A stretch of 64,000 nucleotides of DNA from assembly GCA_965219955.1 (NCBI GenBank), contig OZ244799.1, forward strand, positions 2,240,001 through 2,304,000. Direction: 5' to 3'. The position numbers and the translations under genes were made by a program. This DNA comes from a bacterium (GTDB lineage Bacteria; UBA8248). The notes beneath the pieces were generated by a model, which worked only from the letters and a program-made list of their open reading frames with translations, had not been told where the DNA came from and did not search any database. Shown here in pieces: positions 40,974-58,995 of this stretch. Within the stretch, counting starts at the first letter, position 1. Each line of letters begins with the position of its first letter.

Positions 40974-41456
40974 ATGAAAAAAACGACTCTCTTTCTGTGC
41001 GCGCTCGTCCTGATGACGCTCCCGTACGCGCCCGCGCCGGCCCGGGGGGCCGATCCTCCAAGACGCCTCAAGGCGCGCGTCACCAAGGTCTACGACGGGG
41101 CGAGCTTTCAACTCGGCGGCGGGCTGCGCTCTGCCCTGATCGGCGTGTCCGCGCCCGCTGCCGGCGCGCCGGGCGCGGAACAGGCGCATGCGTACCTGAA
41201 ACGCCTCATCGAGAACCGGACGGTGACTCTCGAAATCGACGAAAAACCCGTGGACGCTTCGGGACAGACGCTTTATTACGTCTTCCTCGAAGAAGGCGGC
41301 CTCGTGAACGCCCTCGTGGTGCTGCGGGGCCTGGGCCGCGCCCTCGTGAAACACCCCAACGTGCGCTACCGCAAGGAGCTGATAGAAGCCGAAAACCTCG
41401 CCAGGCGATACCGCCGCGGCGTGTGGGGCGACGAGCGCGACCCGATAGACAGGTAA
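40974..41456 (+). CDS. Exported thermonuclease (SNase)-fold protein, catalytic residues substituted
   Basis: Signal peptide; RVTKVYDG, LIGV.AP, VN..LV..GL, AE..AR..RRGVW. Confidence 0.78.
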   Translation: MKKTTLFLCALVLMTLPYAPAPARGADPPRRLKARVTKVYDGASFQLGGGLRSALIGVSAPAAGAPGAEQAHAYLKRLIENRTVTLEIDEKPVDASGQTLYYVFLEEGGLVNALVVLRGLGRALVKHPNVRYRKELIEAENLARRYRRGVWGDERDPIDR

Positions 41457-41543
41457 TTTCATACTGGCAGACCCGGTAGTGATGTTGGAGCCCTCGCAGC
41501 CCGCTTCATGCGGGCGGAGGCGGTTGAGCAATCGAATCCGCAG

Positions 41544-42011
41544 GGGGTTGTTGAAAAAGTCCCTTATGCGTCTCCCAGCAACCGCCAACTCCTCATTCCT
41601 CACCCTGAGTAGCCGCCGAAGAGCCTGTCCTGAGCTTGTCGAAGGGCGGCGTATCGAAGGGCGAGGGAAGTCGAATGCCTCGCGCCGGGCGAGAACAAAC
41701 GCTCATTCATCAATCGCGTTTGACCTTCGATATGCGGCTCCGCCGCTACTCAGGATGAGGAAGATGGGGGCGGAGCCTGTCCCGAGCGAAGTCGAGGGGC
41801 CGCTACTCAGGATGAGGCGGTGTGGTTTTGGTTCGTCATTCCGGCGAAAGCCGGAATCCATTTGCGGATGCGGGTGAGTACACAGCGGTGTTTCATTCCC
41901 CCCGATGCGCGGGAACCCTGACGAAAGGCAAAAGGCGTAAAAATGGATTCCGGCTTCCGCCGGAATGACGGCGGTGGTCAATTCCGAGCGATGAGGATTT
42001 TCAGCAGCCCC
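41544..42011. mobile_element. TIR-bounded element with nested REP pairs
   Basis: Left GGGGTTGTTGAAAAAGTCC; degenerate right ATTTTCAGCAGCCCC; CCTGAGTAGC/GCTACTCAGG pair; GTCATTCCGGCGAAAGCCGGAATCCA pair at 41835-41969. Confidence 0.7.
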
Positions 42012-42048
42012 GCATCAGTCGCGATTGGCCCCCATCATCCCCTGTGGA

Positions 42049-43050
42049 TTATCCCGGTTTGCGCGCCTTGTGGTAGTACATCGGCGTAAATATCCCCAGA
42101 CGCCCCGCCGCCACGAGGCTGTCGGCCGCAATGTTCAAAACTTCCTGTACCGCAAGCGACCCGGTGGGCACCGCGCGCACGCCTTCGAGGACGCGCAGCG
42201 CCGCCGTGGTGATTTTCCGGCCAAGCCGCGTTCTCGGCAGACCCCTCAGCGTCAGGCCGCCCCCCTCCAGCGACCGGTACCACGGCGTCCGCGGGTCGGC
42301 GTCCGGGGCGCGGTCGCGCGCCTCGATGTGTTCGAAACCAGCCGCCCGCAAGCCCTCGTTGACGTCTGAGAAGGAGGCGATTCCCGGCAGCGCATTGCCG
42401 AATTCGATACGCTGCATGACTTCTCGATGCGCCGGGTTTTCGCCGTCATACGCAGGAGTCACGCACCAGTCGTAGCCCGCGAAGACAGCCCCCGGCCGCA
42501 ATACCCGGAATATCTCGGCATAGGCGTCCGTCTTGTCCGGCGCATGAGCCAGGGCCTCGACATGGTAGGCCGCGTCGAAGCTCCCCTCTTCCGCCGGAAT
42601 GTTCATGAAATCGCCGTGCAAAACGCTGCACAGATTCTCCAGGCCGGCTTCTTTGTTGTACGCGGCGCACTTCTCGACCTGGTACGCGCTGATGTTGAGG
42701 CCGACGATCGACGCGCCGAACTTCCTGGCGAGCGAGCGTTGGGGGCCGCCTACGCCGCAGCCGACGTCCAGCACCTTCATGCCCGGCCCCAGGCCGATTC
42801 CCTCGCCCAGAAAATACTGATGCGCGGCGAGGGCTTCCTCGAAGGACGCGCCGCGCACCCCGGGCGCGAAGTGAAACGACTGGCCCCATCCGTACTCGTA
42901 AAAGTCGGTGATCAGATCGTAGAACGTATTGATCATGGCGGCGTATTCTTCCTTGCCGCGCTCCTGGCTGCTGCGGAACTTCGAGAGCGTTTCGGCCATC
43001 TCCTCCGGCGGAATCGCCCTGGAAATGGGATTATGAAAGTCAGCCGCCAT
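42049..43050 (-). CDS. Sterol C24-methyltransferase (ERG6/SMT family)
   Basis: Canonical SMT regions: FYDLITDFYEYGWGQSFHFA, VLDVGCGVGGP, YHVEALAHAP, YDW, IEFGNALP, GIFTPMYYHKARKP; ATG 43050 overlaps the Rieske stop. Confidence 0.9.
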   Translation of the reverse strand: MAADFHNPISRAIPPEEMAETLSKFRSSQERGKEEYAAMINTFYDLITDFYEYGWGQSFHFAPGVRGASFEEALAAHQYFLGEGIGLGPGMKVLDVGCGVGGPQRSLARKFGASIVGLNISAYQVEKCAAYNKEAGLENLCSVLHGDFMNIPAEEGSFDAAYHVEALAHAPDKTDAYAEIFRVLRPGAVFAGYDWCVTPAYDGENPAHREVMQRIEFGNALPGIASFSDVNEGLRAAGFEHIEARDRAPDADPRTPWYRSLEGGGLTLRGLPRTRLGRKITTAALRVLEGVRAVPTGSLAVQEVLNIAADSLVAAGRLGIFTPMYYHKARKPG

Positions 43051-44095
43051 TGCCGGTCTCCCTGTCCGGGTCATCCGCGGGGCCTTCAGGGTAGAACTGC
43101 CGGTACCACTCGCGCATCCTGCCCAGGGGGCCCTCGCCCGCAACCCCCGAAGGGCGTTGCCGGTAAATTTTATTTTTCCAGATATCCACGTCCTGCCGCC
43201 ATTGCGAGATCCAGTTCCCGACCACGTAGGAAATCAGAATCCGCGGAATTTTCCGGGCGGCGAACCACCGGAAGGATACCCGTTGCCTGAGCGCCTCGAG
43301 GGGGGTGTGCGTCTGGAACATCGTGATTTCGCCGATTTTCGGTATTTCGAATTCGAACTTCACGATACTGCCGGGACCGAGAAAGGTGATCAGCGCCCGC
43401 GCTCTCGTCTTCTCGTACACCCGGCCCCTTATCTCGAGCGCCGGGTCGTCCTGGAAATAGGCGACGTGCTCAAGCGTGTCATCGAGAAACCACGAAGGCT
43501 CGTGGATAATTCTTATCCAGGGCAATTGTATGTTGGTCCAGGGGATGCGCATTGTGCCGTGGAGCTCTGAAAAATGATGAAAGTCGACGCTGTTCTCGGC
43601 GAATTCGATGATGTGCATGTCCACTTCGCCCGCGTCGTAGCGGCCGCGGTAGACGAGCTCGCGCTCGTCGATCTTCGGCTCCTGCGGCAGCCGGTACGGC
43701 GCCTGAGCACCCTGGCGCGCCGAGTGGTAAATCATCACCATGCCGTAGTAGTCGATCGCCTCCCAATGCCGGTGGACGAGAGGCCGGTCTTTGGCGTGGG
43801 GCGGGTCGCATACTCTGCCGTCGCCGTCCAGCTGCCAGCCGTGAAACGGACATTGCAGCCGGTCCCCCTTTACCTCGCCGTGGGCCAGGTTGGCGCCCAG
43901 GTGCGGGCAGAATGCGTCCACGGCCGCAATCCGGCCGCTCGTCTTGCTGCGAAAAAGGGCGATCTGCTCCCCCACGCACTGAACGTGCTTCGCTTCTCCC
44001 GCCTTGATTTCCCCCGACGCCGCCACCCTGTACCAGCCGTCCGGATAAGGCGGCGGGTAGGTGCGTTCCCGGTAGCGCGTGAGAGCATCGGACAT
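43040..44095 (-). CDS. Rieske non-heme iron oxygenase, Neverland/DAF-36 (cholesterol 7-desaturase)-like
   Basis: PPPYPDGWY, Rieske CPH...CPFH, E-x3-D-x2-H-x4-H (ENSVDFHHFSELH), QDVDIWKNKIY, GP...MREWYRQFY. Confidence 0.82.
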   Translation of the reverse strand: MSDALTRYRERTYPPPYPDGWYRVAASGEIKAGEAKHVQCVGEQIALFRSKTSGRIAAVDAFCPHLGANLAHGEVKGDRLQCPFHGWQLDGDGRVCDPPHAKDRPLVHRHWEAIDYYGMVMIYHSARQGAQAPYRLPQEPKIDERELVYRGRYDAGEVDMHIIEFAENSVDFHHFSELHGTMRIPWTNIQLPWIRIIHEPSWFLDDTLEHVAYFQDDPALEIRGRVYEKTRARALITFLGPGSIVKFEFEIPKIGEITMFQTHTPLEALRQRVSFRWFAARKIPRILISYVVGNWISQWRQDVDIWKNKIYRQRPSGVAGEGPLGRMREWYRQFYPEGPADDPDRETGNGG

Positions 44096-44288
44096 GAAAG
44101 GGCACCCATTTCGCCAAAAAATCGAAAAAAAATCGCCAATTCAACGGATTTCCGGCGCATATTATAGGCCAGCAGCGGTTTGCGCCAGAGAAAAATCGTC
44201 GGGGAAGATGTGGATCGGCTTCTGGCGCCAATGAAAACACCGCTATCCGACCAAATGCGTTTCCGGATCCCGCAATCCCTCCCTCGTC

Positions 44289-44675
44289 GGGGGTGTTGAG
44301 AAAGTCCCTCGAAGAGGAAGTGACGCCTGCGCCTCCGCCCGGTTTCGGGTTTTGGCCGTCATTCCGGCGAAAGCCGGAATCCATTTTCGCCTTTGCCTTT
44401 TCGCCTCTTCGCCCGGACGTTTTTACGCCTGGGCGGGGAGGATCGGAATCGAACACAAAAGCAAAAGGCGAATTCTCTGGATTCTGCATCCGGACGCCGC
44501 GCAACAACAAGGTCGTGGCCACCCCGCCCGGTAAAAAGTCAAAATGGATTCCGGCTTTCGCCGGAATGACGGCTTCGTGGTGAACCGCATCAGCAGTCTC
44601 CGTAACAACGCCCGAATCCGGGCGCACACGAAACGCATCGTCAATTCCAACCGAGAAGATTTTTCAACACCCCCC
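44289..44675. mobile_element. TIR-bounded element with a perfect 26-bp REP inverted pair
   Basis: Left GGGGGTGTTGAGAAAGTCC; right GATTTTTCAACACCCCC; REP pair at 44358-44383 and 44545-44570. Confidence 0.72.
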
Positions 44676-44960
44676 TTCGGTCGGGATTGACATCAGATTG
44701 ACATTCAAAACCCCTAAACCCCCACTCTCCGAATGGGCCACATCCGTCTCTCACCAGGCTGCTCCTTGCTCAATCGATCCCGAAGTGTCAGGGTGAGAGG
44801 CGATACGGCCCCATCGTTCAGCGCGGGGCGAGACCGGCAGGGAACGTCCGAAAAACACCGGTTTCTGCGAGGGCGTACACGGGCGCTGTCCCGCTATGCC
44901 TGGCCGCGCGGGCGAGCGGCGCGGGGATGCGGGACCGGAGGGGTATTCAGGGAGGCGGCC

Positions 44961-45755
44961 ATGGCGGGCTTCGAGGAGGTTTCGATCGACAAACTGTTCC
45001 GCATCGACGGCGACAGCGCGCTGGTCACCGGGGCGGGCGGCGGGCTGGGACGAATCGCCGCGCTCGCGCTTGCCGGCGCGGGGGCGCATGTCGCGGTCAC
45101 CGATATCGATGCGGCGGCGGCCGAGCGGGTGACGGCGGAGATCAGGGACGCCGGCGGGGTCGCCGAGTCCTGGCGGCTCGATGTCGCCGACCGCAAGCGC
45201 ATCGACGCCGTGATCGACCAGGCGGCCGAGCGGTTCGGCGGGCTTCACATCCTGATCAACAACGCCGGCATCATCCGGCCCGGGCCGGCCGAGTCGCTTC
45301 CCGACGAGGACTGGGACGAGGTGGTCGAGGTCAACATGACCGCCCCGTTCGTCTGCGCGCGCCGGGCGGCGAAGCACATGCTGGCCCGGGGGGAGGGGCG
45401 AATCGTCTCGATCGCCTCGATCATGGGGTTCCGGGCGAACGCGATGGTTCCCCACATCCCCTACCAGGCGACCAAGGGGGCGCTCGTCAACATGACCCGC
45501 TCGCTCGCCGTCGAATGGGCGGGCCGGGGGGTCCGGGTGAACGCCATCGCGCCGACCTTCTTCTACACCGAACTCGGCGCCGACCTGCGCCGGCGCCGGC
45601 CCGAGCTCGTGGACGAGATCGAGGCGCGCACGCCGCTCGGCCGGCTCGGCGAGCCCGGGGAAATCGCCGGCGGCATCCTCTACCTCGCGAGCCCCGCCTC
45701 CTCGATGGTGACCGGCCACACGCTCGCGATCGACGGCGGCTGGCTCTCGACCTAG
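44961..45755 (+). CDS. Classical short-chain dehydrogenase/reductase
   Basis: TGAGGGLG, NNAG, YQATK, VNAIAP; ATG 44961 with GGAGG. Confidence 0.93.
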   Translation: MAGFEEVSIDKLFRIDGDSALVTGAGGGLGRIAALALAGAGAHVAVTDIDAAAAERVTAEIRDAGGVAESWRLDVADRKRIDAVIDQAAERFGGLHILINNAGIIRPGPAESLPDEDWDEVVEVNMTAPFVCARRAAKHMLARGEGRIVSIASIMGFRANAMVPHIPYQATKGALVNMTRSLAVEWAGRGVRVNAIAPTFFYTELGADLRRRRPELVDEIEARTPLGRLGEPGEIAGGILYLASPASSMVTGHTLAIDGGWLST

Positions 45756-45976
45756 CCTCCTGATTCAGGAGTTTTCATTCAACTCTCTCCCGGACGCCGA
45801 GTGTCATTCGGCGGAAGCGTTCGATGGCGGCCTCAAGCTCCGCGCTGAAGCGACGGTGGCCAGGGCCGAATCCCGGTGGATTCCGGGTATAGAGGGGTGA
45901 CGGGGGTGTAGGGTTTTGCAGCGGCGTCGAGCTTCCTGAGGAAGAGAAGCTCGAAAGTGTCCGCCCGCGCCGGGCA

Positions 45977-46159
45977 TTACGGCGATGGGGAATCGTCGGG
46001 TATGGCGGCGACGCGGCGCGAGGGACGGCGGACGTATTCGGAACCGGATGCGTCCTGCATGGTCCGAATGTCCCGGAAAATCTCCGCCACGTCGTAACCG
46101 AAGCGCGCCGCGCGCGCATCCCGCACAGCCCGCACCTCGGCGATTATGGAGTCATCCAT
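45977..46159 (-). CDS. Small hypothetical protein (MDDSIIAEVRAVRD..AARFGYD)
   Basis: Protein-like 60-aa helix from ATG 46159; resembles small partners found downstream of PIN-domain genes (recollection, unverified). Confidence 0.5.
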   Translation of the reverse strand: MDDSIIAEVRAVRDARAARFGYDVAEIFRDIRTMQDASGSEYVRRPSRRVAAIPDDSPSP

Positions 46160-46834
46160 TCGCCCGCTTCTTGGGTGGAGGAGCCGGAGGCGGTTTGGGT
46201 TTGGCGAAATTCCTGGGCTTGGACGATACGCCGTCCCCAACCCGAACCAGGCGTTTCGAGGGCGGTGGTATCGGTTCTTTGGCCATCGTTTACTCCTCCG
46301 TTTCTTCATCGGGCGAAGCATTCACAAACTCCCCTATTTCGAGTGCGCCTACTATTTCACCGGATGCCCAGTTCATACGCTATATATCCTCATAACTCGA
46401 CCAATGCGGCCTGGTGATCCTCGCCTGACGACCGAAAATGTATGAACCCCAAGCCCACCAGGGCGCAATAGTCTGGAAACCATATGCTTCCATGCCGGTC
46501 AGCGAACATCGGATCGCAACATACCCGAAGAGAAGCAGGACTCCCGTTGATACGCAAAGGAGGAATCCCGGCGCGAGTCTCTCGATGCTTTGCATCGTCG
46601 GTTTTCTTTGTGGGGTCTGGAGTGGAGCCTCGTGGAGTAGGTAATCCTATCATTTTCCTGGCGCGGCTCCAATCCGCCGCGTCGCATCGGGAGAGATACA
46701 ACCCGCAGGGGCGTCGGACTTCCCGAGGAAGAGAAATTCAACCGTGGCCGCCCGCGCCTGTGCGACAAGGGACAACCACGGGGCCTATCTGCGAAACCGC
46801 TCCCTGCTCAGGGCGGTGATTTTCGCCTTTGTTC

Positions 46835-47024
46835 GTCATTCCGGCGAATGCCGGAATCCAGAACGGATGAGAAGGGAAAGGCGGCGGCGTGATGATCCCG
46901 TAGGGGCGGCTCGCGAGCCGCCCTGTAATCCGAAGCGCATTCTCATCCGCAGGGAATGGCCTCCGCGCCGTCCCGCCCCTCCCCCGGCGTCGTCTCAGAT
47001 GTAGGGGACGCATACATGCGTCCC
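46835..47024. repeat. Cluster of REP palindromes
   Basis: GTCATTCC-type at 46835-46860; GTAG-type at 46900-46924 and 47001-47024. Confidence 0.75.
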
Positions 47025-47214
47025 TCTCGATCCCAAAACGCCCAAACAATCCCACTTCTTGATCGTGAATGTTCTTACCGGACACGACGAGACGGATTTG
47101 AGACGGGAGGAGGCGTTTCTGGGGGTGAGGGGGTTTGTGTGATTGGGGTATGGGGTTGGTATTCTCCATTTTTTGGCGTAATCTTTCCGGAAATCTCGTA
47201 CCGAGAGGACTCAT

Positions 47215-48711
47215 ATGTTCAGATGGTTTAAAGGTGGAGGCGGAAGGCCTGAGCCACCGCCGCCTGGTCAAGTTTTCCCGGAAATAGATGTGGATCGCAT
47301 CGCCGCCGTTCTCCGCCTCGAAAGGGAGGGGAACAAGCGGGGAGAGAAAAACCAGCCAGCATCCGACGAAGTGAATTTAGACCTGATCGAGCAGGAAATC
47401 GTCGATCACGTTGCTGAATTTCGTCACATGGGCATCAACAACTTCCAGGAACATTCCCAAGTGTATTCCGACCGCATCGCGCGGGCCGCCGGAATATCAA
47501 CGAACATTCAAACCGCCGTGGGCGACGCGGAAACCAATTTCATGGCGGAGATCAACACATGGAACGGCATCCTCGCGAACGAACGAAGCGATCGCCAACT
47601 CGTCGGCGAAGAGTTCGAAGACTTCCGCAATGAAAATCGGCTCAGGCGGACGGCGCACGAGGGTGGAGGACTTCTTCAATGGTTCGTCGTGTCGTTGCTC
47701 ATCCTTGTTGTAGAGTCGGTGCTGAACGGCGTATTTTTCGCCAATGCTCATACACTTGGTTTGCTTGGCGGCGTTTCCACCGCCATCGTAATTTCGATCT
47801 CCAATATCATCGTTGCGGCTATCGTGGCCTGGACAAGCCGAAATTTCAATCATCGCCGCTTTGGCCGGAAACTCATCGGCGCGCTCGCATTTCTGTGCGG
47901 CGTGGCCTTCGTGCCAGTCTTTAACCTTTTCGTGGCGCATTTCCGAAATGCCGCAGAAGCCGGAAAACCTTGGGGCGAAGCCGCAGGTCACGCGATTCAA
48001 AGAATCCAGTCGAATCCACTCGGGTTGGAGAGTATTGATGCGTGGATCCTCGGTATGGTCGGGATATTGGCGGCGATAGTCGCTGGCTGGAAGACTTACT
48101 ACTCGGGTGATCCCTATCCCGGCTACGGGCGTGTATGGAGAAAAATGCGCAATGCGCGGGATGCCTATGCCCAGAGGAACGAAGACGCGATCAGCACTGT
48201 AATAGAGAAGAGAGACGAAGCGGTGGACGCTCTTCAATTGGCGAGTGAGAACGCCAAGGCGCAGATTGCGGAAGCCGTAAGCGCGTCTAATGAAATGGCC
48301 TCGCTTCGCGGTCAACTCCGTTCATTTCTGGAGCAATGTAATCAAAAGGTGAACCTGTTGTTGACCATTTATCGGAATGCCAACCAAGAAAAACGAACAA
48401 CGCCGACTCCAGTACATTTTCCCGAGGACTTTTATTTCGAGCCGCACAAAACCGAGCAACCGCCAGCGAGTCAAAACCCGGCGGATGCTACGGCGATACA
48501 GCAACTCGACAAAGTCATCGCCGAGGCGATTGACCGCATCTATGTGGCTTGCAAGAAAGCTATTGAATCTTTCAAGTTGCCTGATGACATTGAATCCAGC
48601 ACGCTTGCGGTCAAGCCCGAGAGTATCCCATCCGGCGGAGGGACCGAGACGGACGACGGCGCGGCACCGCATCACATTGCGCCTTCGCCCGGCGGCAGGA
48701 CTTCGGTTTGA
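47215..48711 (+). CDS. Uncharacterised 4-TM membrane protein with long helical/coiled-coil N- and C-terminal regions
   Basis: GAGGA SD; four hydrophobic segments in the middle; first gene of a coupled operon. Confidence 0.8.
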   Translation: MFRWFKGGGGRPEPPPPGQVFPEIDVDRIAAVLRLEREGNKRGEKNQPASDEVNLDLIEQEIVDHVAEFRHMGINNFQEHSQVYSDRIARAAGISTNIQTAVGDAETNFMAEINTWNGILANERSDRQLVGEEFEDFRNENRLRRTAHEGGGLLQWFVVSLLILVVESVLNGVFFANAHTLGLLGGVSTAIVISISNIIVAAIVAWTSRNFNHRRFGRKLIGALAFLCGVAFVPVFNLFVAHFRNAAEAGKPWGEAAGHAIQRIQSNPLGLESIDAWILGMVGILAAIVAGWKTYYSGDPYPGYGRVWRKMRNARDAYAQRNEDAISTVIEKRDEAVDALQLASENAKAQIAEAVSASNEMASLRGQLRSFLEQCNQKVNLLLTIYRNANQEKRTTPTPVHFPEDFYFEPHKTEQPPASQNPADATAIQQLDKVIAEAIDRIYVACKKAIESFKLPDDIESSTLAVKPESIPSGGGTETDDGAAPHHIAPSPGGRTSV

Positions 48712-49535
48712 TGGCCCGCCGTGGCGCTTCGCGCCGAAGGCGTACTCGCAGGAGGACTGGGGGCACAATCCGTTCATTGATAGGATATTTGTTCATCGGA
48801 TTATTGGTTGTCTTAGGTCTTGGCGTCTTGATAGCAGTCTCGTGGCTGAAACCGCCCGAATACAACGAAACGACGCTGTGTCCGAAAACGGGTCCAGGAG
48901 CGGGGCTCGTCATCCTGCTCGACCTGACGGATCGCATCGGTTCTACTCAGCATACACGGTTGCGTAGCATCCTCGAAAAAGAAGTTGCTGAGGCGCGCCG
49001 GAACACGCTTATCGCCGTAGGCGCCGTCAATCCTGATCCCGGCAAGTGGGGCGTAGACTTCGCGCTCTGCAAGCCACAGGAAGGGAGTGCGGCAAACAAA
49101 CTGTATGAGAACCCTCGTCTTGTCGCCGAAAAATATGAAAAGGATTTCCGGCAGCCGTTCGCAGTCAATCTCGAAAAAATGCTGAAAGCCGAGCTTGCCG
49201 ACCGTTCTCCGATCATGGAGTCACTCCAAGCTGTGCTCGCCGCAACGCCCGGTTTCTTGGATGCTGAATATCCCCGTCGCGTGATTATCGTCTCGGATCT
49301 TTTGCAGCATAGTGCGGTTTTTAGCTTCTATAGAAGGGACACGTGGCGGAAATTTCAGCGCTCGCGCGACTTCGCGCGCCTTGCGCGCACTCTTCGAGGG
49401 GTAGATGTGCAAATTTTGCGGTTGCCGCGCCCCAAAGCGAAGATAGATCCCGCAGAAGTGGGAGATTTCTGGGCGAACTATTTCGATCAGGCGGGCGCGC
49501 GCAGTGTTCGCAGCCGGATGCTCGGCGACTTGTGA
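48711..49535 (+). CDS. Membrane-anchored VWA-like protein
   Basis: TGATG coupling; Arg-rich N-terminus plus TM; VILLDLTD, SPIMESL, VIIVSDLLQHS resemble MIDAS-bearing VWA strands. Confidence 0.65.
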   Translation: MARRGASRRRRTRRRTGGTIRSLIGYLFIGLLVVLGLGVLIAVSWLKPPEYNETTLCPKTGPGAGLVILLDLTDRIGSTQHTRLRSILEKEVAEARRNTLIAVGAVNPDPGKWGVDFALCKPQEGSAANKLYENPRLVAEKYEKDFRQPFAVNLEKMLKAELADRSPIMESLQAVLAATPGFLDAEYPRRVIIVSDLLQHSAVFSFYRRDTWRKFQRSRDFARLARTLRGVDVQILRLPRPKAKIDPAEVGDFWANYFDQAGARSVRSRMLGDL

Positions 49536-49542
49536 GTTCTTG

Positions 49543-50595
49543 ATGGCGGCCAAGACAAACCACATATACGACGTGACGCGTTCCGAAATGATGGACAAAT
49601 GGACACTTGCCTTCGCCTTCCTTCTGGGTACAGGCGGGACCTTTATTCTGAAGTATTACGAGACGGATCCTTTTCTGGTTGTGCTTTGGTCGGCGTTCAT
49701 TCTCCTAGCCTACGCGGCCGCCGCACGGTGGGTCGGACGGTATCGAATCGAAATGGAGACCATCGGAGACAATTGTTATTACCTTGGTTTCGTACTCACG
49801 CTCGTAAGCCTAGCGAGTACGCTTTATCTGCTTGTACGTGCCGAGGCGCAAACTGAAGTCATCCGCGATGTGATATCCGGTTTTGGGGTTGCGCTTACTT
49901 CAACCATCCTCGGGATCATCCTACGGGTTCTCCATATACGCATGAGTCCCGACATGGCTTCCTTAGACCGTCAAACCCGGGTAGAGCTTCACGCCGCAGT
50001 ACGGAACTTCAGGACGAATCTTTCGGCGAGCCTTCGTGAACTGAAACATTTCTCCGTAGAGACCGCACAAATGCTTTCCGAACAGCGTGATGCAATCCGT
50101 GGGGCGTCTAAGGAGGCCATAGAAGCACAGAAACAAATACTGACGGTAAGTGTTGAGGAGCAGATGAGAATCATGAGCAACACGATAGCCGCAGCGACCG
50201 ATGAAGCCACGCAAGCTATTTCGGGTGCAGTTTCCAACTCGGCAGCCGCTTCACAGGAGAAACTCCTCGCTCGCGTCTCCGAAATGCGCGAGGCCGTCTA
50301 TGACCTTGCCCACAAGGAGTCCGAAGCTCTCAAGACGCTCGTGGAGGATTCAACGGGAATCTCTAGTGAGAGCGGGAAAATACAAACTGCACTCATAGAA
50401 CTCGTAGATCGCCTTGAAGCAGTGTCGGCAAGCCTCGACGCGGCGGCCAAGCATGTTTCGCATGAACTTGAACCGGCTGCGATTAACATCGCAAATACGG
50501 TTGTCGATGCGGCTAATTCAACCCGCGAATTGGCAGTGGAATTGAAGAACGCACGAAGGGGAAACGGCTTCTGGGGCCGGTGGCGTTCCCGTTGA
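49543..50595 (+). CDS. ZorA/MotA-like ion channel subunit with long C-terminal helical tail
   Basis: GDNCYYLGFVLTL and GFGVALTSTILG TM motifs; ~200-aa Ala/Ser/Glu-rich tail. Confidence 0.7.
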   Translation: MAAKTNHIYDVTRSEMMDKWTLAFAFLLGTGGTFILKYYETDPFLVVLWSAFILLAYAAAARWVGRYRIEMETIGDNCYYLGFVLTLVSLASTLYLLVRAEAQTEVIRDVISGFGVALTSTILGIILRVLHIRMSPDMASLDRQTRVELHAAVRNFRTNLSASLRELKHFSVETAQMLSEQRDAIRGASKEAIEAQKQILTVSVEEQMRIMSNTIAAATDEATQAISGAVSNSAAASQEKLLARVSEMREAVYDLAHKESEALKTLVEDSTGISSESGKIQTALIELVDRLEAVSASLDAAAKHVSHELEPAAINIANTVVDAANSTRELAVELKNARRGNGFWGRWRSR

Positions 50596-50610
50596 CGAAG
50601 GAATCACGAT

Positions 50611-52062
50611 TTGGTGCAAAATCCGTACTCTGGTTTTACGTCGGCCCACTATCGTCGCGGGACGGTCATGGGCTTGACAGTCGCCGAAGCCTTCATGCTC
50701 GTGGCTTTCGTGTTGCTGATGCTGCTCGTGTTCTGGCGTCAGGAGATTGATGATGAGTACAAAGAGGCGCGTGAATTGACCGAGCGTCTTTCGCCCGAAG
50801 AACAAATGGCCATAGCAGATGCAAAAGATAAGGGTGAGTTGCGGGTACTGCTAATCGATCTCCGCAAGAAAGACATCGATATATCGAAGACAACCAAGGC
50901 GCTTCTCTCGGGTGCGGTTCCGGTTCAGCCTGCCCAACTTAATCAATTGAAATCCCGCGCCCGTCTTGTTGACGAAACGGAAATCCGCCGCCTCGCCGAG
51001 GCAGCGGCGGTTCTGCCACCGGAGCACAAAAGAACGCTCTCCAACTTGGTCTCGCTCTCCGAAGCCGGGGAATTGGTCGAAAAAGTAGCGGCACTTCAAG
51101 ACGTGCTTCAAAAACGAAGTGTTGATGAGATCGCAGACGCGCTCGCATTAAAGGACGCCGCCAAGCCGAACGATGAAGATATCTTAGAGTCACGGAAGAA
51201 GCGAGATTCGCAACTTCGCCGTATCGTCGAAGCCTCGGTGCGTTTGCCACTGGAGCAGAGGAAGAAGATCGCCGATATGGTCGAACGTGCTGAAGCCGGA
51301 GAGTTGGTTGAGAAGGTCGCAGCACTTCAAGATGTGCTTCGAGATAAGAGCGCTGATGAGATATCGAAAGCGCTCGATTTGAGGGAGCATCTGGACCCCA
51401 AGGGTACGACAAGCAACGAAGGATTAAAAAAAATGATTCGAAACCTGCGCGCACAAGCTGCGCGGGTCCGGGATCGACTCGTCAAAGAAGAACGTGCGCG
51501 AGAACAGCTTGTCACCGATCTGAAAACCAAACTCGGCGCTCAAATTGCCGAAGTTGGCGGGCGTATCGAAACCACGGGTAAAATCGTAGTGCCCGATAAG
51601 GTGCTCTTCACCAAGGGCGAGGCCGAAATCCGTTCTCAGTTGGCGAGCTTTCTAAGAGATTTTTGCCCGCACTGGCTTGCTACGCTGAGGAAGTCTGAAA
51701 CGAAAGCCGATATCGGCGAAATTCGGATTGAAGGCCATTCCTCTTCGGAGTGGATCAGCGCGGATACGCCGCAGAAGGCTTGGGTATTGAATCTCGACTT
51801 ATCGCAGCGCCGTGCGCAGGCTGTGCTTGAACGGTGCCTGAGCCTCGTCGCCGGTAGCGCACTTGGAGACTGGGCTCGCAAGAAACTCACGGCGGTCGGT
51901 TACTCCTCCTCGCGGCCTGTAATCGCAAATGGTGGTGAAGACCTGCGGCTGTCGCGGCGCGTTGTTTTCGGCGCGGAACCCAGCCGTGAAAAGTTACTCA
52001 GGGAGATTGGCGGCGACGTCAAAGCCTCGCCAGCGCGAGTTCCTAACGCAGCACGCCCATAA
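50611..52062 (+). CDS. ZorB/MotB-like protein: single TM, long repeat linker, OmpA-like peptidoglycan-binding domain
   Basis: GLTVAEAFMLVAFVLL TM; VLF..GEA, IRIEGHSSS, NLDLSQRRAQAV, GYSSSRP, SRRVVF. Confidence 0.8.
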   Translation: MVQNPYSGFTSAHYRRGTVMGLTVAEAFMLVAFVLLMLLVFWRQEIDDEYKEARELTERLSPEEQMAIADAKDKGELRVLLIDLRKKDIDISKTTKALLSGAVPVQPAQLNQLKSRARLVDETEIRRLAEAAAVLPPEHKRTLSNLVSLSEAGELVEKVAALQDVLQKRSVDEIADALALKDAAKPNDEDILESRKKRDSQLRRIVEASVRLPLEQRKKIADMVERAEAGELVEKVAALQDVLRDKSADEISKALDLREHLDPKGTTSNEGLKKMIRNLRAQAARVRDRLVKEERAREQLVTDLKTKLGAQIAEVGGRIETTGKIVVPDKVLFTKGEAEIRSQLASFLRDFCPHWLATLRKSETKADIGEIRIEGHSSSEWISADTPQKAWVLNLDLSQRRAQAVLERCLSLVAGSALGDWARKKLTAVGYSSSRPVIANGGEDLRLSRRVVFGAEPSREKLLREIGGDVKASPARVPNAARP

Positions 52063-52086
52063 GGGCGGCTCGCGAGCCGCCCCTAC
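52062..52086. repeat. GTAG REP, exact reverse complement of 46900-46924
   Basis: AGGGCGGCTCGCGAGCCGCCCCTAC. Confidence 0.85.
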
Positions 52087-52565
52087 AAAATCACACCCCT
52101 CATCCCACGATTTTGCCTCGCATTTGCCCGCATTTGCCGTTCTGCCTGACATCACGAAACCCGCTATCGTGCGCTCGGCGCGGGGAAGTGGTTTGTTCCT
52201 CGGCGAATTGACGCGCAGGGAGAGAAGGCTTTCTGATGGAATTAGGTCAAGGGGTGGGAATGAAGGCTTTGAACACACCCTCTCCTGCCGCGTTCGACAC
52301 TCCCTCATCGCTCGAGTCAACCACCGCGAAGAAAAGAGTTGCGCTCATAGATGCAAGGATAGCGATGGAAATGAAAATAATGATATTTTCGATAAAATTG
52401 GATAAATTCACGATGTTTTTCGATAAATTCCTGAAAATTGTTTCTTATGTAACTGGTTGTAATACAAAGAATTGCCTTCAAACCCGGCGCAATACACCCG
52501 GATTCGGCGGCAAAAAAGTTTTTCAGGCTTCCACGCATTTCCCCGCAACAGCCCGCATTTGCGCG

Positions 52566-53357
52566 CTATGCGCCGCCGGCCTCTATCTCTCCTTTGGGCG
52601 CGTCACCCCCGTCCGGCTGCCTGTCCACGAAGGGCTTGAGCAGGTCGAGCGGCAAGGGGAAGACGATGGTCGAGTTGTTCTCGGTGGCGACTTCCGAGAG
52701 CGTCTGCAGGAAGCGGAGCTGGAGCGCGCCCGGGGCCGTGGCGATGGTGGCGGCGGCCTCTGCCAGCCGCTCGCTCGCCTGGTATTCGCCCTCCGCGTGG
52801 ATGACCTTGGCGCGGCGCTCGCGCTCGGCCTCGGCCTGGCGGGCGATGGCGCGCTGCATCTCGCCGGGAAGGTCCACGTGCTTGAGCTCCACGTTGGTGA
52901 CCTTGATGCCCCAAGGGTCGGTGGCGTGATCGAGAAGCTCCTGGAGCTGGGTGTTGATCTTCTCGCGCTCGGAGAGCAGATCGTCCAAATCCATCTGGCC
53001 GAGCACGCTCCGGAGCGTCGTCTGGCTCAACTGGCCCGTGGCGTAGAGGAAATCCTCCACCTCGATGATCGCGCGCTCGGGCGTCAGTACGCGGAAGTAG
53101 ACCACGGCGTTCACCTTCACCGACACGTTGTCCTTCGTGACGATGTCCTGCGGGGGCACGTCCATCGTCACCAGCCGCAGGCCCACGCGGGTCATGCGGT
53201 CGATCACCGGAAGCACGATAATGAGGCCGGGCCCTTTCGTGGAGTGGAACCGGCCCAGCCGGAAGATGACGCCGCGCTCGTATTCGTTCAGCACGCGGAT
53301 GGCGCTCGCCAGGAACAGCAAGATGATGATGGCGGCGATGATCAAGCTCCAATTCAT
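52566..53357 (-). CDS. Stomatin/slipin (SPFH) family protein
   Basis: [37 protein letters not shown]. Confidence 0.95.
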
Positions 53358-54722
53358 TTATCCACCCTCCTTCTCGACGCGGAGTCTGAGGCCCTCCACA
53401 GAGACCACGCGGACTTTGTCCCCGACTTCCAGGGGTTCGCCCGAGTCCGCCATCCATATCTCGCCGTGCACCCGAACCTGGGCCGGCGACCCTTCCCCGG
53501 ATAATGCGCTCACGACGCCGGACTGGTCGAGCATTCCCTCCGAACCCGAGACCGGCCGCACCCGCTGGGCGCGAAAGCCCATTCCCACGAGCCAGACGAA
53601 GAAAAAGGCCGTTCCGGCGACCGCGGGCAGGATCACCTTCAGGCTGATTTGCAGGTAGGGGTCCGGCGAATCGATGAGCATGACCGAGCCGAGCGTCATG
53701 GCGATGATTCCGCCGATGGTCAGACCCCCGTAGCTGACCACCTGGATCTCCAGGAGAAACATGATGACGGCAAGTCCCATCAAGAGAAGCCCCACGTAGT
53801 TCACCGGCAGGACCTTGAGCGCATACAGCGCCAGGAGCAGGCTGATGGCCCCCACCACGCCGGGCAGGATGGAGCCTGGATTCGAAAGCTCGAAGAACAG
53901 CCCGTACATCCCCAGAAGCATCAGGATGTAGGCGATGTTGGGGTCGCTCAAGAGGGTGAGCACTTTCTGGCGCCAGCTTCGCTCGAGCACGATTTGCGCG
54001 GCGCCCCTGGTCGAGAGGGTGACGGTGTCGCCGCTCGCGAGTTTTATCTTTTTCCCGTCGACCGCCAGCAGAAGGGAGCGCACGTCCGCCGCCACCAGGT
54101 CGATGACCTTTTGCTTCAGGGCTTCGGCCTCATCCACGGATATCGCCTCGCGGACCGCGCTCTCCGCCCATTCGATGTTGCGCCCGGTGCGCGAGGCCAC
54201 CGCCCGCGCGAAGGCAGCCACGTCGTTCATCGCCTTTTTGCGCATATCGCCCTGAATCTGCTTCCCCCCGCCCGATACGGGCGAAGCGGCGCCGATGTTC
54301 GTGCCCGGCGCCATGGCGGCGATGTGGGCCGACATGGTGATGAACGTGCCGGCGGAGGCGGCCCGCGCCCCTCCCGGAGCGACGTATACCGCCACGGGAA
54401 CGCCCGCGCCGAAAATCGCCTTCACGATGTCGCGCGTGCTGGTAACCAGACCGCCGGGGGTATCGAGGCGAACAACGAGAAGCTGCGCCCCCCTCCTGGA
54501 AGCTTCTTCGATGCCGAACGTGATGTACTCCGAAGTGCCGGGCGATATGGCGTCCGCCACGTCCAGCACGACGACGGGAGGCGTCTTCTGCGCGGCGGTG
54601 GCATGGTAGATGGTCAGCATCGCACCGACCGTCACCAGAGCGAGCAGAACCGCCAAATGGATTCGTTTGTAAAGCTTCCTTCGCATCCCATACCTCAAAA
54701 GCGGCTGGAACATTGGGCGCAT
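53358..54722 (-). CDS. nfeD: NfeD membrane-bound serine protease
   Basis: LDTPGG, ARAASAG, GAASPV, TM region, C-terminal VHGEIW OB domain; start uncertain. Confidence 0.93.
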   Translation of the reverse strand: MRPMFQPLLRYGMRRKLYKRIHLAVLLALVTVGAMLTIYHATAAQKTPPVVVLDVADAISPGTSEYITFGIEEASRRGAQLLVVRLDTPGGLVTSTRDIVKAIFGAGVPVAVYVAPGGARAASAGTFITMSAHIAAMAPGTNIGAASPVSGGGKQIQGDMRKKAMNDVAAFARAVASRTGRNIEWAESAVREAISVDEAEALKQKVIDLVAADVRSLLLAVDGKKIKLASGDTVTLSTRGAAQIVLERSWRQKVLTLLSDPNIAYILMLLGMYGLFFELSNPGSILPGVVGAISLLLALYALKVLPVNYVGLLLMGLAVIMFLLEIQVVSYGGLTIGGIIAMTLGSVMLIDSPDPYLQISLKVILPAVAGTAFFFVWLVGMGFRAQRVRPVSGSEGMLDQSGVVSALSGEGSPAQVRVHGEIWMADSGEPLEVGDKVRVVSVEGLRLRVEKEGG

Positions 54723-54767
54723 CTTAACACAAAGTGGTACGTTGGTATCGCCCCATGCACCAGGCCG

Positions 54768-56105
54768 TTATTCATCCAATTCGAGCAACACCTCATCCAG
54801 GATGCCGACGGCCGTATCGACCTGGGCCTCGTCGATAATTAGGGGAGGCAAAAACGCGAGGACGTTCCCGTGGTGTCCACCCGGATAGATGAGAAGGCCC
54901 TTTTTCAAGGCCATGTCACTCGCCTTCTTGGCGACGCTCAAGGGTTCGCGCGTCGCCCGGTCGGAAACCAACTCGGCCGCTATCATCAACCCGCGCCCGC
55001 GAACCTCGCCGACGATGGAATGGCGCTCCGACAGCTCCTCCAGCCTTCTCAGGAAATAAGAACCCATCTCCAGGGAGCGTTCGGAGAGGTTCTCCTCTTC
55101 ATACACCTCGATGGAAGCCAGGCCGGCGGCGCACGCCATGACGTTTCCGGCGTAGGTGCTGCTCTCGGTTCCGGGATTCGAAGCATCCGCGATTTCTTTT
55201 TTCGCAACGCAGGCGGCAAGAGGCAATCCGCCCGAAATCGATTTTCCCATCACGACCAGATCGGGTTCGACCTCTTCATACTGGTAGGCGAACATCTTTC
55301 CCGTGCGGCAAAACCCGCTCATCACCTCATCGATGATGAGCAATACTCCGTGACGGTCACATACCTCGCGAAGCTCCTTCAAAAACCCGATGGGCGCCGG
55401 AATCATGCCGCCGTTTCCCTGAACCGGCTCGATGATGACGGCCGCCACATCGCCCCAGCCGCTCACGGGATTCTCGAGAAATTCATTGATGTAGCGAATC
55501 GTCCCCTCGGCGCATTTCTCCGGGCCATCACCGAAGGGGTTACGATAGGGGTATGGATAGGGAACGTGATGAACCCCCGGAACGAGCGTCCCGAGTCCTT
55601 CGCGCTGGTTTTTCCTGCCCATCAGGGCCACGGCCCCCAGGGTTCTGCCGTGGAACGCGCCCGTGAAGGCGACGATCTCATCGCGCCCCGTCGCCCGGCG
55701 GGCCATCTTGAGAGCGATCTCGGCCGCTTCGCTGCCCGAGGTGCCGAGGATCATGCTCTTAGGAGTTGCACCCGAATGCAGGGAGAGGACTTTATCCAGA
55801 AATTCGTTCCGCACCTTCGAGCCCAGCGACATGGCCTGATGGACCTGCTCCGCTTGTCTCTGCATCGCCGAGACGACTTTGGGATGGCAATGACCCGCGT
55901 TCAGGGATCCGAAACCGGCGACGAAATCCAGAAACAAATTGCCGTCGACGTCTTCGATCACCGCCCCTCGCGCGCGCTCGACCACGACGGTTTCGGGGCT
56001 CATCCCGAAGCTGAGGGCGGCGCGGCTCTCCGCTTTCCTGAGACGTTCAAGTTCCTTGCGGGTTTCGGGTCCTGGATGGGGAACAACAAATTTCGGCGCT
56101 TCCAA
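54768..56105 (-). CDS. Class III aminotransferase (GabT-like)
   Basis: DVDGN, SGSEA, FHGRT, EPVQGNGG, DEVMSGFCRTG, GKSISGG. Confidence 0.92.
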   Translation of the reverse strand: MEAPKFVVPHPGPETRKELERLRKAESRAALSFGMSPETVVVERARGAVIEDVDGNLFLDFVAGFGSLNAGHCHPKVVSAMQRQAEQVHQAMSLGSKVRNEFLDKVLSLHSGATPKSMILGTSGSEAAEIALKMARRATGRDEIVAFTGAFHGRTLGAVALMGRKNQREGLGTLVPGVHHVPYPYPYRNPFGDGPEKCAEGTIRYINEFLENPVSGWGDVAAVIIEPVQGNGGMIPAPIGFLKELREVCDRHGVLLIIDEVMSGFCRTGKMFAYQYEEVEPDLVVMGKSISGGLPLAACVAKKEIADASNPGTESSTYAGNVMACAAGLASIEVYEEENLSERSLEMGSYFLRRLEELSERHSIVGEVRGRGLMIAAELVSDRATREPLSVAKKASDMALKKGLLIYPGGHHGNVLAFLPPLIIDEAQVDTAVGILDEVLLELDE

Positions 56106-56265
56106 AGCAAACCCTCCTCGTTATTCACCAATATCTCTACCATATTCTGAAAGGCATTAGGAACGGTTCAAAAAATGCACTCGTAACGCGTGTCTTTCAA
56201 CTGTGATTGTTATAAGATGCAGCCCAAATGAAAGCCACCCACACCGAAGAAATATAGAGGCGCCC

Positions 56266-57519
56266 GTGAGCACAAACGCTTCCCCGAAGAAAATATATTA
56301 CGGCTGGTACATTCTGGCCGGTTGTTTCTCCATGATGTTTTTGGGTCTGGCGACCAGAAATTCATTCGGTCTTTTCTTGAAACCGATGATTGCGGATTTC
56401 AACATCAGCCGCGCTTCCTTGTCTCTCCCCTTTTCTCTTTGCCTGATTCTCTACGGCGCGTCACAACCATTGGGCGGGCTCATGATGCGCCGCTGGGACC
56501 CCAAAACGGTCATCATCTGGGGCTCGGCGTTGACGACCATCGCCATGCTGGGAATCTACTATGTCGACTCCCTGTGGGGCGTCTATCTGTTTTTCGGCAT
56601 TTTGCTGGGAATAGGAGGAATCGGCAACAGCGTGACCGCCTTCACCCCCCTGGTGTCGAACTGGTTCCCGGACAGGCGGGGGCTGGGCATGTCCATCATC
56701 AGCGCAGGCTCGAGCATGGGCCAGCTCATTTTGCTTCCCGTCTTCGCGTATATGATCGGCTATCTGGACTGGAGAATGACCTCGTTCGTCATCGGCGTCA
56801 TTTTCGTGTTCACCCTGATGCCCATATCGATCCTCCTCATCAAAAACGCGCCCACGTCCAGGGACGTCCCCCCGAGCGCGCCCACGTCCGGCAACGGCGT
56901 CAAGATGGTCGTCCCCTACGATGTACACTGGGTGCAGTGCCTTCCAAAGATGCCGTTCGTCCTCCTGCTCACGAGCTTTTTCACCTGCGGCTTCACCGTA
57001 ACGGTCGTCTCCGTCCACTGGGTGCCGTTTGCGACGGACGTAGGCTTTTCCGCGGCCGTCGCGGCCACGTCCTTCGCCCTGGGCGGCGGACTCAACACCG
57101 TGGGCGTTCTGGCCGTCGGTCCGCTTTCGGACAAAATCGGACGGAAAATCCCCTTGAGCCTGATCTACGCCTTCCGGGGGCTCGGGTTCATCCTTTTTAT
57201 CTTCTTCAAGAACGATTTCACCGTATGGGCCACGCCGATGATGATCGGCCTCTCCTGGATCGCGACCGTCCCGCTCACCTCGGCGTTGACGGGGGATTTC
57301 TTCGGCTCCAGGAACGTGGCGATTCTCTTCGGGCTCATCACGTTCAGCCACCAGCTCGGCTCGGGCCTGAGCGCCTGGCTGAGCGGATACATCTATGACG
57401 TGACGGGCAGCTACAACCTCGCATTCGCACTGGCGGCCTACCTTTGTCTCCAGGCGGCCGTGCTCGTCTCTTTCATCAACGAAAGAGAAGTCCGCGTCCC
57501 GCAAGTGGCCACGACGTAG
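56266..57519 (+). CDS. MFS transporter
   Basis: ~12 TM; YYGW, WFPDRRG, GPLSDKIGRK, IYDVTGSY. Confidence 0.92.
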   Translation: MSTNASPKKIYYGWYILAGCFSMMFLGLATRNSFGLFLKPMIADFNISRASLSLPFSLCLILYGASQPLGGLMMRRWDPKTVIIWGSALTTIAMLGIYYVDSLWGVYLFFGILLGIGGIGNSVTAFTPLVSNWFPDRRGLGMSIISAGSSMGQLILLPVFAYMIGYLDWRMTSFVIGVIFVFTLMPISILLIKNAPTSRDVPPSAPTSGNGVKMVVPYDVHWVQCLPKMPFVLLLTSFFTCGFTVTVVSVHWVPFATDVGFSAAVAATSFALGGGLNTVGVLAVGPLSDKIGRKIPLSLIYAFRGLGFILFIFFKNDFTVWATPMMIGLSWIATVPLTSALTGDFFGSRNVAILFGLITFSHQLGSGLSAWLSGYIYDVTGSYNLAFALAAYLCLQAAVLVSFINEREVRVPQVATT

Positions 57520-57651
57520 CACGGAATGAATGGAGTCCGAAAACCCCACACCGTGAAATGAACGTGCGAATTTGCCACCAGGAGAAGCCTTTGCAATAAT
57601 TCTTGCTCTTTCGGGCGAGGCCGGGCTTCGCCGTTTACTTTTGGTGAAGAG

Positions 57652-58995
57652 ATGGACTGCAACTGCTGGTTCCAATGCATAAACCCTGAATGCGAGGCGA
57701 CATACTCCATTTTCGACTCCATTTATCGGTGCCGTGAATGTGAGAGCCTCCTCGACGTCACCCACGATCTGGAAACCCTGCGCATGCGAAGCGCGTCGGA
57801 GTGGCGTCATCTGTTCGACGATCGCTACCAGCGCAATATTTGGCCGTACGGCAGCGGCGTTTGGGGCAAGAAAGAGTGGGTCTGCCCGCTGATAGACGAT
57901 GAGAACATCATCTCGTTCTACGAAGGGGGGACGAACCTTTTCTGGGCGAACCGTCTGGGTCGAGAACTCGGAATCGGTGAATTGTGGATCAAGCAATGCG
58001 GAAACAGCCACACCGGCTCTTTCAAGGACCTCGGCATGACGGTTCTCGTCTCCGCCGCGCAGCAGATGATAGCCGACGGGAAAAAACTTCGCGCCGTCGC
58101 CTGCGCATCGACGGGCGATACCTCCGCCGCATTGGCCGCGTACGCCGCGGCGGCCGATATCCCCGCCATCGTTTTTCTGCCGCGAGAAAAGGTTTCGATG
58201 GCGCAGCTCATTCAACCCATCACGAACGGCGCCGTGGTGCTCGCCATCGACACGGATTTCGACGGTTGCATGCGGATCGTGAAACAAGTGTGCGAGGAGC
58301 AGGGAATATACCTCGCCAACAGTATGAATTCGCTTCGGATCGAGGGGCAGAAAACCATCAGCATAGAACTCGTTCAGCAGTTCGACTGGGAGGTTCCCGA
58401 CCTCATCATCATTCCAGGCGGAAACCTGGGAAACGTGAGCGCGCTGGGCAAGGGTTTCATGCAGATGCGAGATTTGGGTCTTATCGACAAACTGCCCCGC
58501 ATCGTCTGCGCCCAGACGGAAAAGGCCAATCCCCTGTACAGAAGTTTCATGACCGGGTTCCGGGAATTCCAACCCATAGAGGCCGAACCGACGCTGGCGA
58601 CGGCCATCCAAATCGGGAATCCGGTGAGTATCGAAAGGGCCATCAGTACCCTGAAAGCATTCGAGGGTTCCGTGGAGCAGGCGAGCGAGGAAGAATTAGC
58701 GAACGCCGCCGCCCGCGCGGACAGAACCGGAATGTACAACTGCCCACAGACCGGCGTGGCATTGGCTGCTCTCGAAAAAATCATCGCGCGCGGAGAAATC
58801 AACCCTCAAGACCGGGTGGTCGTCATCTCTACGGCTCATGGGCTGAAGTTCACCGAATTCAAGGTCAATTATCACCAAAAAGCGATTCCGGGCATCGACA
58901 GCCGATTCGCCAACACTCCCATCGAACTTCCTGAAGACATCAACATGGTTCAAGATGCCATTGAGAAGAAACTCGGCGCATTGTCCGTAGGGTAG
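57652..58995 (+). CDS. thrC: Threonine synthase (plant-like subtype)
   Basis: [58 protein letters not shown]. Confidence 0.93.

Follow-up and report, generated by a model that had tools for sequence, protein, structure and literature searches.

What kind of machine is encoded where a pair of genes resembling the Zorya motor subunits ZorA and ZorB stands beside two membrane proteins of new families, and could such a machine be an immune system? The question is raised by a cassette of four genes, g1 to g4, at positions 47215–52062 of a 64,000-nt stretch of bacterial DNA (contig OZ244799.1; hereafter the window). We find that the cassette is real and conserved, that it represents a variant of the stator-based systems not described before, and that the window copy is a nuclease-deleted one. 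The cassette is an accessory, horizontally moving membrane module whose four genes are inherited together.

A preliminary description of this DNA had reported four co-oriented, tightly spaced genes that are richer in A and T than the core genes. The coordinates of the open reading frames (ORFs) bear out this layout, with all four genes in the same orientation:

47215–48711, + strand: g1, 498 aa
48711–49535, + strand: g2, 274 aa counted from its ATG, which overlaps the g1 stop codon as TGATG
49543–50595, + strand: g3, 350 aa, 7 nt after g2
50611–52062, + strand: g4, 483 aa, with a TTG start, 15 nt after g3

The TTG is the better choice of start for g4 because homologues align upstream of its internal ATG. 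The compositional claim was equally sound: the GC content of the cassette is 54.7%, compared with 62.3% in 40000–47214 and 59.2% in 52062–59000 (cassette lower than flanks, Wilcoxon p 0.009).

Conservation and distribution of the cassette

A scan with the g3 alignment, taking one genome per species, identified 194 relatives, of which the best 80 loci were retained. All four genes occur in the same order in 74 of these 80 loci, so the set does co-occur elsewhere; the six exceptions (L005, L032, L051, L061, L064 and L067) are mostly contig ends or disrupted frames. An overlap of 1 or 4 nt between the end of g1 and the start of g2 recurs in 53 of 76 loci. The flanks are not conserved, the commonest flank cluster recurring in just 7 of the 74 loci. 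RefSeq labels the family genes as three hypothetical proteins and an "OmpA family protein."

The distribution is patchy. When 51 genomes of the host phylum were searched with g2, the cassette was found in two, the host and one congener, and apart from the congener the nearest relatives are alphaproteobacterial; horizontal transfer is therefore the likely route of its spread. Homologues of the cassette are carried on 24 plasmid records, and no g3 homologue was found in 50,697 phage records. The family is sizable: the g2 profile retrieves 2757 clusters at 50% identity, 1930 of them at E up to 1e-10, and in one class it has matches in 24 of the 401 genomes sampled. Two loci in metagenome-assembled genomes (MAGs), L016 (Halioglobus, a gammaproteobacterial MAG) and L017 (Poriferihabitaceae, an alphaproteobacterial MAG), have identical g1 and g2 and partly identical flanks, which points either to transfer in the very recent past or to a single contig assigned to both bins.

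At 20 more distant loci reached with the g2 profile, g1 and g2 are adjacent in every case, with g3 recognizable in 13 and g4 in 11. Seven of these loci (L155, L157, L163 and L165–L168) have other genes in place of g3 and g4 downstream of the g1–g2 pair, which may thus be a module that can be combined with other machines. Downstream of the pair in L163 and L165 lie single ORFs of 950–1019 aa.

A stator-like pair with a membrane glutamate

In the g4 protein, about 250 aa of helical linker separate a single transmembrane (TM) segment, which bears Glu26, from an OmpA-type peptidoglycan-binding domain. Its N-terminal pattern, YRRG-x-(I/V)MGLT-x-AE-x-F followed by a hydrophobic helix, contains the TM motif MGLTVAE, and in a motif comparison by eye the glutamate falls where MotB, ExbD, TolR and ZorB have their proton-carrying aspartate:

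50686–50688, + strand: codon of Glu26 in g4

This carboxylate is Glu in all 77 loci with a readable motif and likewise Glu, never Asp, in all 74 motif-bearing database homologues. The replacement of Asp by Glu in a single TM segment, as claimed in the preliminary description, is real and holds throughout these sequences. In position, Glu26 resembles the Asp of MotB, ExbD and ZorB, an equivalence drawn from the motif. In the Zorya structure paper, the TM Asp is described as "universally conserved and mechanistically essential" (PMC11946911).

The remainder of g4 is also of the ZorB/MotB type. The protein passes the Pfam OmpA model (PF00691) at residues 333–444 with 28.1 bits against a cut-off of 27.2, in agreement with the OmpA-like domain noted previously. 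Among the PADLOC models it matches ZorB2 (2e-33, residues 288–466) and ZorB1 (2.4e-28), and it matches the NCBIfam ZorB2 model with an E of 8.7e-24, far below the equivalog cut-off. Two repeats of about 57 aa, with 31 of 57 residues common to both, make up part of the linker.

The g3 protein has four predicted TM segments and a TM core at about residues 25–130, and about 215 aa form a helical tail in the cytoplasm. The tail varies in length across the family, whose members measure between 308 and about 600 aa. Two motifs, GDNxYYLGFxxTLxSL and GFGxALxST, are invariant, and Thr86, Ser120 and Thr121 are among the invariant residues of g3. Against Pfam MotA_ExbB (PF01618), g3 scores an E of 0.0086 (16.3–17.5 bits, cut-off 22.9), and of 26 g3 homologues, 24 have MotA_ExbB as their highest-scoring Pfam family, with a best E of 1.4e-5. 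A full-length g3 profile searched against the PDB retrieves a ZorA-type chain, 8vvn_C, at an E of 5.6e-6 amid coiled-coil noise.

We also compared the g3 family alignment by hhalign with nine ZorA2-type proteins that had been retrieved with the PADLOC model. The full alignment gave a probability of 96.6% (E 5e-10) over g3 residues 78–133, and the TM-only alignment 26.9%. Over the same region, genuine TolQ/ExbB proteins reach 29.7% against ZorA; g1 and g2 reach 3.4% and 0.2%. On the strength of these profile comparisons and of gene context, we take g3 to be a remote member of the ZorA/MotA/ExbB superfamily that is closer to ZorA than to TolQ/ExbB. The preliminary description had called it a MotA-family channel with a helical tail of about 200 aa; the tail is there, and the kinship with MotA and ZorA is a remote one.

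Because the host genome has three canonical MotA/ExbB/TolQ genes outside the cassette, the cassette is not the housekeeping motor, a reading that we rejected. One of the three lies within the window, at about 15187–15549 on the minus strand (PF01618, E 4.3e-30).

Nuclease domains at the end of g4 and their loss

A nuclease domain is present at the C terminus of g4 in 35 of about 75 homologues, as SNase in 29 and as a GmrSD-type HNH domain in 6. By tblastn, SNase is fused in frame at the end of g4 in 28 of 77 homologues, occupies a separate ORF in seven loci and is found in neither form in 41; Pfam, which detects SNase in 24 of 75 g4 homologues and GmrSD_C (HNH-type) at the same position in six others, adds L047 to bring the fused SNase count to 29. 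Among 110 database homologues, precomputed annotations place an SNase domain in 23 and Endonuclease_1 in one, the latter with the family MGLTVAE motif. SNase genes adjoin the cassette in L027, L055 and L050, and on plasmid pRL11 of Rhizobium johnstonii a thermonuclease gene lies directly 3' of the OmpA gene. Three unrelated nuclease folds thus share one site, 3' of the wall-binding domain, which by the topology of g4 should lie on the periplasmic side. SNase and Endonuclease I are typically secreted and would fit a periplasmic C terminus.

In the window, an SNase-query tblastn over 47215–52566 found nothing. The earlier observation that the locus has no helicase or nuclease stands for the window copy and fails for the family. 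The proposal that went with it, of a nuclease-free system with the four-TM protein g1 as effector, overlooks the usual build of the family. Because 35 of about 75 g4 proteins carry a nuclease and the window copy has lost its own, a nuclease is more likely than the four-TM protein to be the family effector.

The loss can be traced in alignment A6. In relatives P0167, P0168, P0173 and P0176, at 62–76% identity, GDVG is followed by about 145 residues that the window copy does not have. There, g4 runs from GDV straight into a 13-residue tail resembling the last 13 residues of P0167:

52018–52023, + strand: deletion scar (SNase domain, in frame), between V470 and K471 of g4

Because about 145 residues are missing while a P0167-like tail is kept, the alignment shows that the window g4 lost its SNase domain through an in-frame deletion. 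Two closer relatives, P0164 and P0165 (87–88% identical in A6), end a few residues into the linker, the domain having been lost another way. We ruled out an assembly error as the origin of the nuclease-less g4 because a 500-nt contig from an independent sponge metagenome run, about 88% identical and lacking the domain, spans the junction without a gap. In a third metagenome run, contig X6 (depth 4.3) joins 52020 to 52063. The final 42 nt of g4 are missing from it, the gap extending exactly from the scar to the repeat element that follows the gene (described below); the junction at the scar seems prone to rearrangement.

We placed the nuclease states on a tree of g1 and g2, made by a quick search on 62 rows with 19 loci omitted for odd ORF lengths; the tree does not give the direction of change. 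With a support of 100, the window groups as sister to L001, which bears SNase; the clade of the window has 12 members, 8 of them with the domain. The tree requires at least 15 changes of nuclease state, at least 12 of which are forced by well-supported branches, and the shared position of the domain points to repeated loss in the family.

A membrane-anchored vWA-fold protein and a four-TM protein

The g2 protein begins with an Arg-rich N terminus, followed by one TM segment and a vWA-fold domain, with a linker of only about 10 residues between the two. No Pfam vWA model matches g2, and a PDB profile search returned noise only (E 0.43); the fold was recognized from an AlphaFold2 model of high confidence (predicted local distance difference test (pLDDT) 90.3). 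In a VIA search with this model, the top 50 matches are all vWA domains (Z 11.3–12.9 over 150–186 residues), and Foldseek matches vWA domains with E down to 6.8e-6.

The invariant residues of g2 are C58, C121, D72, T74 and D75. The canonical metal-ion-dependent adhesion site (MIDAS) motif of vWA domains is DxSxS...T...D; the corresponding invariants of g2, D72-x-T74-D75, S167 and E171, form a different pattern. The TM segment is poorly conserved and contains neither His nor an acidic residue. The two invariant cysteines and the positively charged N terminus fit a vWA domain that would lie on the periplasmic side.

In its AlphaFold2 model (pLDDT 85.5), g1 opens with a helical hairpin, continues through four TM helices and ends in long helices; the hairpin, the long C-terminal helices and both termini are predicted to be cytoplasmic. 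Invariant polar residues within the TM helices include E167, N197, N237 and H242. Foldseek found no match to g1 at E up to 1e-3, a wide VIA search gave generic helical bundles only (Z up to 12.4, within the noise of the tool for helical models), and the ESM Atlas contains it in unnamed clusters only. No Pfam, PADLOC or NCBIfam family covers it, and its profile search yielded 51 clusters, every one named hypothetical. On its model, g1 is a family-specific four-helix membrane protein without a known fold.

Comparison with known systems

To our knowledge, no immune system other than Zorya, for which only three partner sets have been described, uses a motor of the flagellar-stator type, and the known motors of the MotAB/ZorAB type all use Asp where the cassette family has Glu. 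The cassette shares with Zorya a wall-binding B subunit, whose peptidoglycan-binding domain gives the ZorB2 match reported above, and a channel subunit whose helical tail in the cytoplasm is long and varies in length. Both families are accessory and mobile, and both have nuclease companions, most closely in type II Zorya with its HNH nickase ZorE.

The differences are as pronounced. Whereas the partners of ZorAB are the soluble ZorC/D, ZorE or ZorF/G, those of the cassette are two membrane proteins of new families, and neither g1 nor g2 has a significant PADLOC match, Zorya partner genes included. The nuclease of Zorya is a cytoplasmic protein, whereas in the cassette family it is joined to the B subunit at what should be its periplasmic end. 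The TM segment has Glu in place of the Asp emphasized in PMC11946911, g4 has a periplasmic helical linker of about 250 aa, and g3 is half the size of ZorA and below significance with ZorA models. Of four Zorya features tested, the ZorB-type domain is present, the Asp and the partner genes are absent, and the match to ZorA models stays short of significance; we therefore do not file the cassette as Zorya, although it probably works like it.

The MotAB, ExbBD and TolQR motors resemble the cassette in their adjacent A and B genes, in the single carboxylate in the TM segment of g4, in the two conserved TM motifs of g3 with Thr/Ser in the MotA_ExbB region and, for MotB, in the OmpA-type domain. They differ from it in having Asp rather than Glu, and g3 stays below the Pfam cut-off and gives no hhalign signal to the TolQ/ExbB proteins of the host phylum.

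Similar in outline to g2 are the membrane-tethered vWA proteins beside TolQR-like motors, which have an N-terminal single TM helix followed by a periplasmic vWA domain, next to a 5:2-type motor (PMC12204202, Mol Biol Evol 2025). Compared with the families as they appear there, g2 has neither the SHLS/His motor-binding motif nor the Asp-bearing trans-pore helix, has almost no linker, always travels with g1 and is accompanied by a separate B subunit, g4.

In relatives, the domains joined to g4 come from the same families as secreted or periplasmic nucleases, namely staphylococcal nuclease and Endonuclease I such as Vvn/EndA. Unlike these, they are tethered to a wall-binding stator subunit of the inner membrane, and the window copy has none.

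No PADLOC, NCBIfam or Pfam model names the four-gene set, so it does not match a named system in these collections, and a literature search of main texts turned up no account of a ZorAB-like motor that has vWA or four-TM partners or a nuclease-fused B subunit. The cassette family keeps the motor logic and replaces all of the partner proteins; it differs further in Glu for Asp, in a nuclease at the presumed periplasmic end of the wall-binding subunit and in the frequency with which that nuclease is dropped.

Proposed mechanism and alternative explanations

By analogy with ZorAB, g3 and g4 would form an ion-driven 5:2 stator unit, anchored to the wall through g4 and with Glu26 as its proton carrier. 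The translationally coupled g1 and g2 may form a second membrane complex, which would couple the periplasmic vWA domain to the cytoplasmic helical bundles and might meet the tail of g3. The output of the family would be a nuclease attack, triggered or positioned by the motor, on DNA that crosses the envelope, be it phage, gene-transfer-agent or transforming DNA. The window copy would be either disarmed or, like intact nuclease-less relatives, in use of a nuclease-independent output, for which an ion leak through the motor or g1 is a candidate.

The case for immunity is built on the Zorya-like architecture, the swapping and loss of nucleases, the patchy distribution and the carriage on plasmids. 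Taken together, we judge the chances about even that the family is a motor-coupled system directed against incoming DNA, with a window copy that is disarmed or works independently of a nuclease. A more specific version, which we offer as a tentative possibility, is that a Glu-based, wall-anchored proton motor, holding an exchangeable nuclease (SNase, HNH or Endonuclease I) in the space that separates the inner membrane from the wall, destroys foreign DNA in transit before it reaches the cytoplasm, with the g1–g2 vWA complex as an envelope sensor, and that the repeated loss of the nuclease betrays a second, nuclease-independent protective output of the motor and the g1–g2 core. If the family is defensive, foreign DNA would be open to attack before cytoplasmic entry, and the natural nuclease-null alleles would separate motor signaling from killing.

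Several results weigh against immunity, or against the stator assignment beneath it. PADLOC identifies established defense systems within about 7 kb of the cassette in only 9 of 74 loci (type III and type II CRISPR-Cas, BREX, type I and II restriction-modification, PD-Lambda-1, Lamassu, Uzume and AbiE), with candidate systems near three further loci. We set aside neighbor matches to ABC ATPases (mad3/mad8), IstB (DrmD) and ankyrin as generic, and those to RmuC, PDC-S12 and NUDIX as doubtful. Matched control regions were taken 200 kb away in the same genomes and compared on ORFs of at least 230 aa; over the 14 of 20 control regions covered (116 of 163 distal ORFs of this size), strong defense matches occur at 3 of 14 cassette loci and 1 of 14 control regions (p 0.60), and the enrichment in defense islands for which a survey had been suggested is not significant. 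Mobility genes give a marginal result: within the 40 of 74 loci whose neighbor genes are covered by Pfam, a transposase, integrase, resolvase or relaxase lies within two ORFs of the cassette in 14, compared with 2 of 20 control regions (p 0.06), so that mobility of the cassette is plausible and marginally shown. The 41 of 77 g4 homologues that have no nuclease include whole clades, and the nuclease is not needed for upkeep of the core. For g3, the E values against ZorA models are only 0.009–0.45 (PADLOC) and 0.13 (NCBIfam ZorA_4), a PDB profile search with the TM core alone gave noise and no match, and 32 TolQ/ExbB proteins of the host phylum reach just 0.5% by hhalign, a value that unrelated controls reach as well. 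From the preliminary description, then, the envelope system stands as a stator-type module that is conserved in 74 of 80 loci and unnamed; its anti-phage role is where these neighborhood counts leave it, a suggestion.

The same features might belong to an envelope machine that has nothing to do with immunity and serves in maintenance, in the scavenging of extracellular DNA or in DNA uptake, with the periplasmic nuclease processing DNA for nutrition or import and the vWA protein transmitting force or acting as an adaptor in the periplasm. Both SNase and Endonuclease I belong to the classic secreted nucleases, metabolic genes surround many of the loci, and no enrichment in defense islands was shown; membrane-tethered vWA proteins beside TolQR-like motors have moreover been proposed as force transducers (PMC12204202). 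The g2 protein departs from those published families in its lack of both the His/SHLS motif and the Asp helix and in its linker of about 10 residues. A non-immune role also sits poorly with the patchy occurrence of the cassette (2 of the 51 phylum genomes, 24 of the 401 sampled from one class), with its variable contexts, in which transposases or integrases are often present, and with its plasmid-borne homologues. The exchange of unrelated nuclease folds at one site, with at least 15 changes of state (at least 12 forced), is a habit of conflict systems, and we consider a non-immune machine rather unlikely.

The forms without a nuclease bear on two further explanations. One, which takes literally the sensor and effector roles given in the preliminary description, is abortive infection by a nuclease-free, membrane-bound system in which the vWA domain senses envelope damage and the four-TM protein or the motor collapses the membrane potential. 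It would account for the homologues, whole clades among them, that keep four intact genes and no nuclease, and for the invariant polar residues within the TM helices of g1, and unplugged stators leak protons, according to work on the MotB plug. We regard it as quite improbable: neither Foldseek nor VIA recognizes a pore-forming or channel fold in g1, and the window lineage descends from a nuclease-bearing form, as judged from its sister L001 and the prevalence of SNase in its clade. The other concerns the window copy itself, which might be a decaying relic whose effector domain is gone and in which stop codons have yet to accumulate. The in-frame deletion, the different truncations by which the two close relatives lost SNase and the metagenome variant in which the joint that removes the last 42 nt starts exactly at the scar are all as expected of decay. 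The four ORFs are intact, every family-invariant residue that we checked is retained, the nuclease-less allele persists in a population about 88% identical from another study, and nuclease-less forms are common and conserved elsewhere in the family; a relic is thus unlikely in our estimation.

Repeats and other features around the cassette

The segment of low GC that holds the cassette is flanked by two exact copies, in inverted orientation, of a 24-nt REP-like palindrome, GTAGGGGCGGCTCGCGAGCCGCCC:

46900–46923, + strand: REP-like palindrome, copy 1, exact; left bracket of the low-GC segment
52063–52086, − strand: REP-like palindrome, copy 2, exact and inverted; directly 3' of the g4 stop codon

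The 4.28-Mb genome contains 81 matches to this palindrome at up to two mismatches, 10 of them exact, and other close pairs of it lie 1.2 and 2.4 kb apart. Such REP-like elements may mark mobile units.

Neither tRNA genes nor Rfam families were found in the window, a PHROGs scan returned nothing significant, and a promoter and terminator scan gave no more sites than shuffled sequences. A stand-alone SNase-family protein of 160 aa with a signal-peptide-like N terminus (PF00565, E 2.5e-10) is encoded at 40974–41456 on the plus strand, 5.8 kb upstream of g1; its similarity to the g4-type domain is only weak (E 0.04), and we did not count it as the missing nuclease. Beside it, at 40239–40790 on the minus strand, is a P-loop ORF that appears by eye to be zeta-toxin/AAA-like. 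Finally, the peptide strings PAKAGIH and IPAFAGMT, read from the ORF list, occur in spurious multi-frame ORFs at 44300–44600 and 46750–47000, which suggests that copies of another dispersed repeat lie in the intergenic DNA near the cassette.

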